IMG/VR virus record: IMGVR_UViG_2737471846_000007
Direction: 5' to 3' (one strand)
Length of the DNA stretch: 4,791 nucleotides
Origin: a virus
Lineage: Duplodnaviria > Heunggongvirae > Uroviricota > Caudoviricetes
Shown: positions 4,333 to 4,782 of the stretch, piece by piece
Layout: each line of letters starts with the position of its first letter
How positions within the stretch are numbered: the stretch's first letter is position 1
Made by a program: the position numbers and the translations under genes
The notes under the pieces: model-generated
Told to the model about the DNA's origin: nothing
What the model saw: only the letters and a program-made list of their open reading frames with translations
Database searches by the model: none

Positions 4333-4782
4333 TTACTTAACCAATGATGCTGCATATTCGATAAGGTAAAGCTTTGGGGCCAGCCAAATTTTTAACCAAG
4401 TCATATTGGTTACTGCACCAATAATAAAAATCCCCCACAGAGTCAAAACTCCAACCAATGGCATGATAAGAAGATTAATATCACCTTTGCTATCCCAAAC
4501 CATTGTCGGCCTGTATTTGAGATTTTCCTTCTCCCATGAATATCCTTCATCACCGATTTTACCTATCTCAACTCTTTGGCACTGCTTCTTCATAAACCAG
4601 AAAACCAGTGGGATTGTTAGAATGGCTATTAATGTTTTAATCAGACTGTCAACCATATTCCATAGCAGCAACTGATGAACAACATCAGGAATCTGTGCCT
4701 GGCTAAATGAAACAGCCGCGTCTATTCCATTACTGGCTTTTTGCAGTAGTTCTACGAGAATCTTGTTTGCTTGTTCTTCCAT
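4333..4782 (-). CDS. Predicted small inner-membrane protein (149 aa, two hydrophobic helices), function unknown; candidate superinfection-exclusion or host-interaction accessory gene
   Basis: ATG 4782-4780 with AGGTGA SD 5-6 nt upstream; two long hydrophobic segments (LIKTLIAILTIPLVFWFM and INLLIMPLVGVLTLWGIFIIGAV) separated by a charged loop; followed by a strong intrinsic terminator. Lies upstream of ea10, the region where lambda carries ral/sieB. Confidence 0.7.
   Translation of the reverse strand: MEEQANKILVELLQKASNGIDAAVSFSQAQIPDVVHQLLLWNMVDSLIKTLIAILTIPLVFWFMKKQCQRVEIGKIGDEGYSWEKENLKYRPTMVWDSKGDINLLIMPLVGVLTLWGIFIIGAVTNMTWLKIWLAPKLYLIEYAASLVK

Follow-up and report, generated by a model that had tools for sequence, protein, structure and literature searches.

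PHROG 3054, a catalogued but uncharacterised family of small phage membrane proteins with conserved tails and a cassette-like middle, in the early-left operon of a lambdoid prophage

Imm of the virulent phage T4, the product of an early gene, is a small membrane protein that has two hydrophobic segments and prevents DNA from entering at the inner membrane. SieB of lambda and P22 is likewise a membrane protein; its gene is one of the accessory genes left of N in lambdoid phages and has a promoter of its own, and the protein acts by abortive infection. The lambda protein is 184 aa long according to its record, and its gene lies on the strand opposite to the pL operon, between N and ral. Morons, in turn, have been defined as extra DNA of deviant base composition, equipped with its own promoter, for expression in the repressed prophage, and its own terminator (PMC3594210, citing Juhala et al. 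2000). HK97 gp15, a protein of the YebO family, is moron-encoded and confers superinfection exclusion, acting alone and blocking genome entry (PMC3594210).

The window analysed here, a stretch of 4,791 nucleotides in total, is the pL (early-left) arm of a lambdoid prophage, with its genes on the minus strand. At its right end lies a gene for a 149-aa membrane protein, the subject of this study, which is compared below with the systems just described. The features of the window are as follows.

1580-2260, minus strand: exo
2257-3042, minus strand: bet
3048-3344, minus strand: gam
3420-3696, minus strand: kil and cIII
3651-3709, minus strand: lambda cIII thermoregulator (Rfam Lambda_thermo, 88.5 bits, E 2e-21), before cIII, as expected for a lambdoid pL operon
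3769-4137, minus strand: ea10/DUF2528 (Pfam E 8e-47)
4138-4301, minus strand: lambdoid 'boundary' spacer before ea10, with a 14-bp hairpin at ~4236-4283 and a tL2a-like terminator at 4164-4185
4302-4328, minus strand: intrinsic terminator with a 6-bp stem (5 G-C), a 6-nt loop and TTTATTTTT, identified by terminator scan and folding energy
4333-4782, minus strand: coding sequence of the 149-aa membrane protein (PHROG 3054), with an ATG start and a TAA stop at 4333-4335, supported by homologues and dN/dS
4785-4791, minus strand: Shine-Dalgarno sequence AGGTGAT, 2 nt upstream of the ATG, at the end of the window

The open reading frame at 4333-4782 is strongly supported as a genuine gene encoding a small inner-membrane protein built as a helical hairpin. 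A word-indexed search retrieved 516 homologues of the product at E<=1e-3, and an exhaustive search at the same threshold 1,844 homologue clusters at 50% identity; dN/dS is 0.24 over 55 distinct DNA alleles, the mark of purifying selection, and an identical copy in E. coli 90-3040 (NZ_CP027459) is annotated as a coding sequence (WP_032207130.1). The reading frame is thus not a chance one. An earlier note on this DNA, made from the letters alone, had described a protein of 149 aa with an N-terminus of about 45 aa, two membrane segments and a charged loop rich in K/E/D/W, preceded by a good Shine-Dalgarno sequence, and this description was borne out: residues 46-64 and 102-125 are hydrophobic, the 37-aa loop holds 8 K/R, 7 D/E and 2 W, and AGGTGAT is a 7-base complement of the 16S rRNA 3' end.

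The copy in E. coli 90-3040 belongs to a defective prophage beside icd, which contains IS elements and has lost its late genes; the order before the gene is N (Pfam N_peptide, E 9e-32), a 28-aa acidic ORF, a deleted ral, a terminator and 58 nt. A remnant of this kind, interrupted by IS elements, with ral deleted and late genes missing from the vicinity, is where a functionless, decaying frame could be expected. The frame is nevertheless intact, copies at least 95% identical to the protein occur in the functional phages HF4s and Gally, the tails of the protein are under strong purifying selection, and the family comprises more than 1,800 clusters, so that a spurious or decaying ORF is extremely improbable for this copy and a dead ORF is excluded for the family. 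In the same source genome, ral is internally deleted past the right end of the window (locus L091, 9523-9720), with an annotated 23-aa remnant, and the very acidic 28-aa ORF (MEEEFEEFEEHPQDVMEQYQDYPYDYDY) sits after the remnant of a lambda-type N; this ORF starts with the same Shine-Dalgarno sequence plus ATGGAAGAA as the 149-aa gene.

Relative to lambda, the gene represents an insertion of ~490 bp between ral and ea10, where lambda joins ral directly to the spacer that precedes ea10. Lambda 34152-34059, which comprises the 3' end of ral, its terminator and ~28 nt beyond, matches the sequence upstream of the gene, while lambda 34087-33857 matches the window from 4321 leftwards at 97% identity. 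The gene had been assigned previously to the ral/sieB slot between N and ea10; the interval is confirmed, but the position is that of an insertion between ral and ea10 and not that of sieB. An independently acquired accessory module, as also proposed, agrees with the absence of the module from this place in lambda, its GC content of 38-39% against 51-54% for exo/bet/gam (ea10 is also low, at ~37-42%), the mosaic joints on both its sides, at which relatives carry other genes or further inserts, and the different sites occupied in other phages. In Stx1a-converting phages, the slot between N and the spacer holds instead the gene for a 227-aa protein with an Nmad5 domain (Pfam E 6e-71; locus L097, 2678-3361), a domain described as nucleotide-modification associated.

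The terminator was only in part what had been claimed, namely a strong one of the gene's own within 5 nt. Its hairpin (AGGCCG-CATAGT-CGGCCT, 4328-4311, then TTTATTTTT) does begin 4 nt past the TAA stop, and the scan found three terminator-like sites in 3600-4791 against 0.9 expected; with a folding energy of -9.7 kcal/mol (z -2.4), however, it is moderate rather than strong, and the part that extends leftwards from 4321 is a homologue of the terminator behind lambda ral, having in common with it part of the loop, the 3' arm, the T-tract and the following bases. Some 29 nt including the 3' arm and T-tract occur on both flanks of the inserted module. The terminator is a hybrid, in which a new 5' arm and most of the loop have been joined to a resident 3' half. 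Compared with the terminators and 'boundary sequences' of the lambda tL2 region, the 3' half of the hairpin and the spacer are common, whereas the 5' arm comes from the insert and the terminator is present twice. A terminator directly after the family gene is also found in HK639, where it is annotated, and in a Pseudomonas prophage.

The spacer that separates the gene from ea10 is 195 nt long, 97% identical to lambda and labelled bsq4/tL2A in the Sf6 record. The minus strand of 4138-4335 folds at -61.4 kcal/mol (z -5.2), far better than shuffled sequences, into three hairpins: the terminator of the gene, the 14-bp hairpin, which has no T-tract, and the tL2a-like terminator. The 14-bp hairpin (~4236-4283) is conserved in lambda (34003-34050); RNA processing and Rho-dependent termination are possibilities for its role. 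Many related prophages (e.g. loci L015, L021 and L063) carry an extra 330-1000 bp at window positions ~4278-4288, which indicates a second accessory insertion point just downstream of the terminator of the gene.

In relatives, the gene is found either behind N, with a gap of 8 nt, or behind ral and its terminator, with a gap of 58 nt; of the 132 family loci, 74 have N at a distance of one to three genes upstream. The junction (A/G)AGGTGA(T/G)AT-ATG is constant behind these different upstream genes. Independent expression from a promoter of its own did not survive inspection: a consensus scan gave no promoter-like site on the strand of the gene, and the gaps of 8 or 58 nt leave no room for one. 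These two observations strongly support the prediction that the window copy is a delayed-early gene, transcribed from pL in an N-dependent manner and bracketed by two terminators. The same pair of gene and terminator is present in the pL operon of HK639, a phage that uses an RNA antiterminator. Being predicted to depend on pL and N, the window copy would not be a prophage-expressed cassette like sieB; it should be silent in a repressed prophage, and any protection would be possible only during lytic growth.

The same evidence bears on the proposal that this is a SieB-like gene, expressed from the prophage and protecting the lysogen through abortive infection or exclusion. The general accessory region from N to ea10 is where lambda has sieB, the product is a membrane protein, and some relatives are opposite-strand morons. 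Yet the gene follows N or the ral terminator closely on the pL strand with no promoter-like site in the consensus scan, whereas lambda sieB lies on the other strand between N and ral; members of the family also occur in virulent phages, and there is no homology to SieB, either as a Pfam match of the protein and 132 members or in an hhalign comparison of the family alignment with lambda SieB (probability 0.1%). A SieB-like role is therefore considered very unlikely.

The protein matches PHROG 3054 ("unknown function") with an E-value of 4e-62 and 209.8 bits, and does so over its full length (protein 1-149 against profile 1-137 of 137). The statement of the earlier note that no family could be assigned thus stands for named families, as no match to the protein was found in Pfam, NCBIfam or PADLOC, and falls for catalogued ones. 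When 132 diverse members were compared one by one with Pfam and PADLOC, only hydrophobic noise was obtained; in PADLOC 2.0 the protein itself had 0 matches and the 132 members only scattered single matches to generic 2TM effector models. The family profile retrieved no solved structure from the PDB, giving only GPCR helices at E ~1, the homologues are all named 'hypothetical' or 'TM helix-containing', and the literature searched, including the P22 SieA paper and the text of a moron review, contained nothing on any PHROG 3054 member. The window gene is a typical member of a catalogued, wholly uncharacterised family, and in kind a small accessory phage membrane protein.

PHROG 3054 is found in both temperate and virulent phages, which infect Gamma- and Betaproteobacteria and have the morphology of podo-, myo- or siphoviruses. 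Identity to the 149-aa protein is 96% for the 'TM helix-containing protein' of HF4s, 56% for HK639_44 of HK639 and 49% for Sf6 gene 34; these three, together with phi92 gp220 and gp83 of Shigella phage B2, are true homologues that have the two-helix layout and the conserved tails. The lambdoid and P22-like phages with a member include HF4s, Gally, Oslo, HK639, Sf6 (gene 34), CUS-3, HK633 and SPN9CC, the N4-like Schitoviridae include FSL SP-076, Shigella B2 (gp83) and Vibrio phages, the rV5/phi92-like myoviruses are represented by phi92 gp220, and further members are found in many Vibrio, Pseudomonas, Klebsiella and Rheinheimera phages. Among species-representative genomes, the hosts are Enterobacterales, Pseudomonas, Thalassotalea and, within Burkholderiales, Pusillimonas, Castellaniella, Achromobacter and Oxalobacter. 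The distribution is sporadic, with members in about 175-180 of 50,697 phage records, and the window allele is present in 130 of 5,426 complete E. coli genomes.

Along the gene, the protein is organised as follows.

4648-4782, minus strand: acidic N-tail, codons 1-45; conserved, net negative, predicted to be periplasmic
4591-4647, minus strand: hydrophobic segment 1 (TM1), codons 46-64; Kyte-Doolittle 19-mer peak of 2.0, variable sequence
4480-4590, minus strand: charged variable loop, codons 65-101; predicted to be cytoplasmic
4408-4479, minus strand: hydrophobic segment 2 (TM2), codons 102-125; Kyte-Doolittle peak of 2.4, least constrained part
4336-4407, minus strand: C-tail TWLKIWLAPKLYLIEYAASLVK, codons 126-149; conserved, aromatic

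Two hydrophobic segments are present in 125 of the 132 aligned members. The loop varies from 11 to 65 aa across the family, with a K/R cluster right behind TM1 and a semi-conserved D-x-x-G-D motif before TM2. The commonest residue of an alignment column has a frequency of 0.58 in the N-tail and 0.75 in the C-tail, against 0.30 in TM1, 0.20 in the loop and 0.19 in TM2; for close alleles, the dN/dS values are 0.09 for either tail and 0.18, 0.26 and 0.84 for TM1, the loop and TM2, respectively. Nearly invariant residues in a diverse alignment are F26, P32, V34, Q37, L38, L39 and W41 in the N-tail and I132, A135, P136, K137, L140, E142 and L147 in the C-tail, where Y143 is invariant and the family motif APK-YL-EY is strongly conserved. 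Because constraint is concentrated in the tails, the hydrophobic part would be an anchor with little specific packing; the conserved tails look like the functional part, and the helices and loop like a mainly exchangeable anchor. An AlphaFold2 model of the protein (mean pLDDT 89) has long helices at 2-68 and 106-148, and the hairpin geometry, taken with the conservation pattern, suggests that the tails pack against each other.

Charge statistics point to the orientation of this hairpin. The 12 residues past TM1 hold on average 3.0 K/R, against 0.57 ahead of TM1; in 113 of 133 representatives, more K+R are found on the loop side than on the tail side when 15 aa from the helix ends are considered, and the N-tail, 37-57 aa long, has a net negative charge in 130 of the 133 (mean -3.8). 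Under the positive-inside rule, both conserved tails would be periplasmic and the basic loop cytoplasmic.

The part between the tails is swapped as a cassette (TM1, loop and TM2) between near-identical ends. At the DNA level, Sf6 gene 34 is ~99% identical to the window gene from the Shine-Dalgarno sequence to codon 42, then unrelated, and again 95-100% identical from the last ~25 codons through the terminator; this mosaic explains the matches in ~120 E. coli genomes that consist of 2 pieces with 46-47% covered and 94-95% identity. Both ends are at least 80% identical to the window protein in 101 of 309 family proteins examined, and these 101 contain at least 12 types of middle (<40% mutual identity, 66-103 aa). 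One of these types belongs to the copy in a Pseudomonas lundensis prophage (locus L121, 4995-5492); the N-tail of this copy has ~85% protein identity to that of E. coli, a likeness across host orders that speaks for either a recent transfer or a tail under very strong constraint. A swapped middle would look like what is expected of a region that determines specificity or takes part in an arms race. Alternatively, the variability may reflect relaxed constraint on the anchor, as in TM2 with its dN/dS of 0.84, and recombination across conserved ends rather than selection.

The family is strongly supported as self-sufficient, stand-alone and accessory, of the 'moron' type. Clustering of the neighbours in 132 loci revealed no conserved partner gene, only the expected lambdoid genes; neighbours of ~180 aa in several phages were considered as partners and rejected, being unrelated to one another. 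Besides the position behind N or ral in lambdoid and P22-like phages, members are found behind the RNA polymerase II genes in the early or middle part of N4-like genomes, and as same-strand inserts, which in a siphovirus lie among the head and tail genes and in a P22-like phage between the homologues of gp4 and gp10. In one P22-like contig (locus L093, 3826-4380), an overlapping 184-aa ORF without a Pfam match precedes the member; both lie between gp4 and gp10 homologues, after a terminator-like hairpin, and may form a two-gene insert. Opposite-strand inserts occur in the late cluster of an E217-like myovirus, where the promoter-like TTGACG-16-TG-TATTGT precedes the gene by 28 nt, and between the terminase and portal genes of Pseudomonas and Rahnella prophages; in the Pseudomonas prophage, a terminator lies within ~5 nt of the stop of the member. 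The Rahnella and Pseudomonas copies also have, upstream and on their own strand, a G+C-rich hairpin followed by ATTTTTTTAA (L105 4952-4969 and L121 4758-4774, respectively 26 nt and ~220 nt before the ATG), and are hence bracketed by terminator-like hairpins, as in the genome of the window. Taken together, the settings of PHROG 3054 comprise positions of early, of late and possibly of lysogenic expression.

In Proteus, Yersinia and Providencia prophages, the member ends a lysis cassette composed of holin(s), an M15 endolysin, Rz and the member, whose start in Proteus overlaps the end of Rz. This arrangement raises the question of a modulator of lysis timing or membrane integrity at the inner membrane, either antiholin-like or protecting the membrane potential, and the predicted periplasmic tails could meet the periplasmic parts of holins or spanins. 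Against it, the post-Rz position accounts for only 3 of the 37 species loci of the scan, most members belong to early operons, at a distance from the lysis genes, and no holin or antiholin model of Pfam matches the protein or any of the 132 members. The site after Rz is moreover a known insertion point of morons, exemplified by lambda bor. A role in lysis is thus regarded as unlikely.

Measured against the definition of a moron, the window copy consists of extra DNA, as the ~490-bp module is absent from lambda, deviates in base composition from exo/bet/gam, although ea10 is low in GC too, and has a terminator 4 nt past its stop, half of which it shares with the terminator resident in lambda. 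The consensus scan revealed no promoter for this copy, while the opposite-strand relative in the E217-like myovirus has a promoter-like site; possession of a promoter may therefore differ between members. The likeness to HK97 gp15 lies in a small inner-membrane protein encoded by a self-contained insert with a terminator, which can sit in late operons, and the range of settings of PHROG 3054 matches that reported for gp15 (PMC3594210). In contrast to the window copy, with its predicted dependence on pL and N, gp15 has 62 aa and is expressed from the prophage, and no relation between the two was detected by hhalign (probability 0.5%) or as a YebO match in Pfam for the protein and the 132 members. 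The family resembles T4 Imm in that it also has members among the early genes of virulent phages; it differs from Imm in size and in tail motifs, and no Imm-type Pfam model was among the matches of the protein or the 132 members at E<=0.1.

Our leading guess, with a probability of roughly 0.3, is that the protein excludes superinfecting genomes at the inner membrane in the manner of Imm or gp15. In a cell that is infected or lysogenic, it would act by itself on the periplasmic side of the inner membrane, and a second phage would be stopped from passing its DNA across this membrane, by a mode like that thought to operate for T4 Imm and HK97 gp15, to neither of which the protein is related. Exclusion is the best fit to a stand-alone membrane protein with two conserved, probably periplasmic tails and an exchangeable anchor, found in temperate and virulent phages in varied settings and distributed sporadically. 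Against it weigh the predicted silence of the window gene in a repressed prophage, the chance that the variable middle reflects relaxed constraint on an anchor, and a topology derived from charge statistics. Breadth speaks against it too: known exclusion proteins are usually narrow in range, whereas the tails are conserved over phages of Vibrio, Pseudomonas, Enterobacterales and Burkholderiales, a pattern that a conserved host target fits at least as well.

Such a target is central to counter-defence or host take-over, in which the tails would bind a conserved component of the host envelope and neutralise it early. Candidate targets, by analogy with RIIA/RIIB against RexAB and cIII against FtsH, might be a membrane-bound abortive-infection effector, a protease or another inner-membrane machine, each a tentative suggestion. 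Co-transcription with the host-directed early functions ral, cIII, kil and gam is in keeping with this role, as are the members in early regions of strictly virulent phages, the conservation of the tails across different virion types, a pattern that speaks for a host target that is itself conserved, and the N-dependent, hence lytic-growth-only, expression predicted at the window locus. Similarity to any named family is lacking, though; the opposite-strand inserts in late clusters, one with its promoter-like site, suggest expression outside the lytic programme in some prophages, and the sporadic occurrence described above, both in phage records and in E. coli genomes, also weighs against it. 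Counter-defence is itself doubtful, yet nearly as good an account as exclusion, and it explains the wide conservation of the tails better. The remaining probability falls to explanations outside those considered here.

A more general formulation, which we put forward as a speculative possibility, is that PHROG 3054 constitutes a new class of autonomous phage envelope protein, whose conserved tails, facing the periplasm, would engage a component of the inner-membrane surface common to Gamma- and Betaproteobacteria, so as either to exclude incoming phage genomes broadly or to neutralise a membrane-based host defence, while specificity or escape would be tuned through the exchangeable cassette.

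Among the phage genes that still lack an explanation, a large share encode small membrane proteins, and PHROG 3054 is a large family of them (~1,800 clusters at 50% identity) yet absent from Pfam. A gene of this type left of N would not surprise a specialist and, should it give no phenotype, it would be another ordinary accessory gene of the lambdoid early-left region. Members are nevertheless available in genetically tractable phages (Sf6, HK639, HF4s, phi92 and N4-like phages), a single plasmid clone can be tested since no partner gene is needed, and the constant tails, the cassette-like middle and the predicted periplasmic exposure offer experimental handles. Its breadth, its absence from Pfam, its design of constant tails around a variable core and its single-gene autonomy make the family a reasonable experimental target. 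If exclusion or counter-defence is true, PHROG 3054 would be a broadly distributed new player in phage-phage or phage-host conflict at the inner membrane, a step of infection that is still poorly understood.
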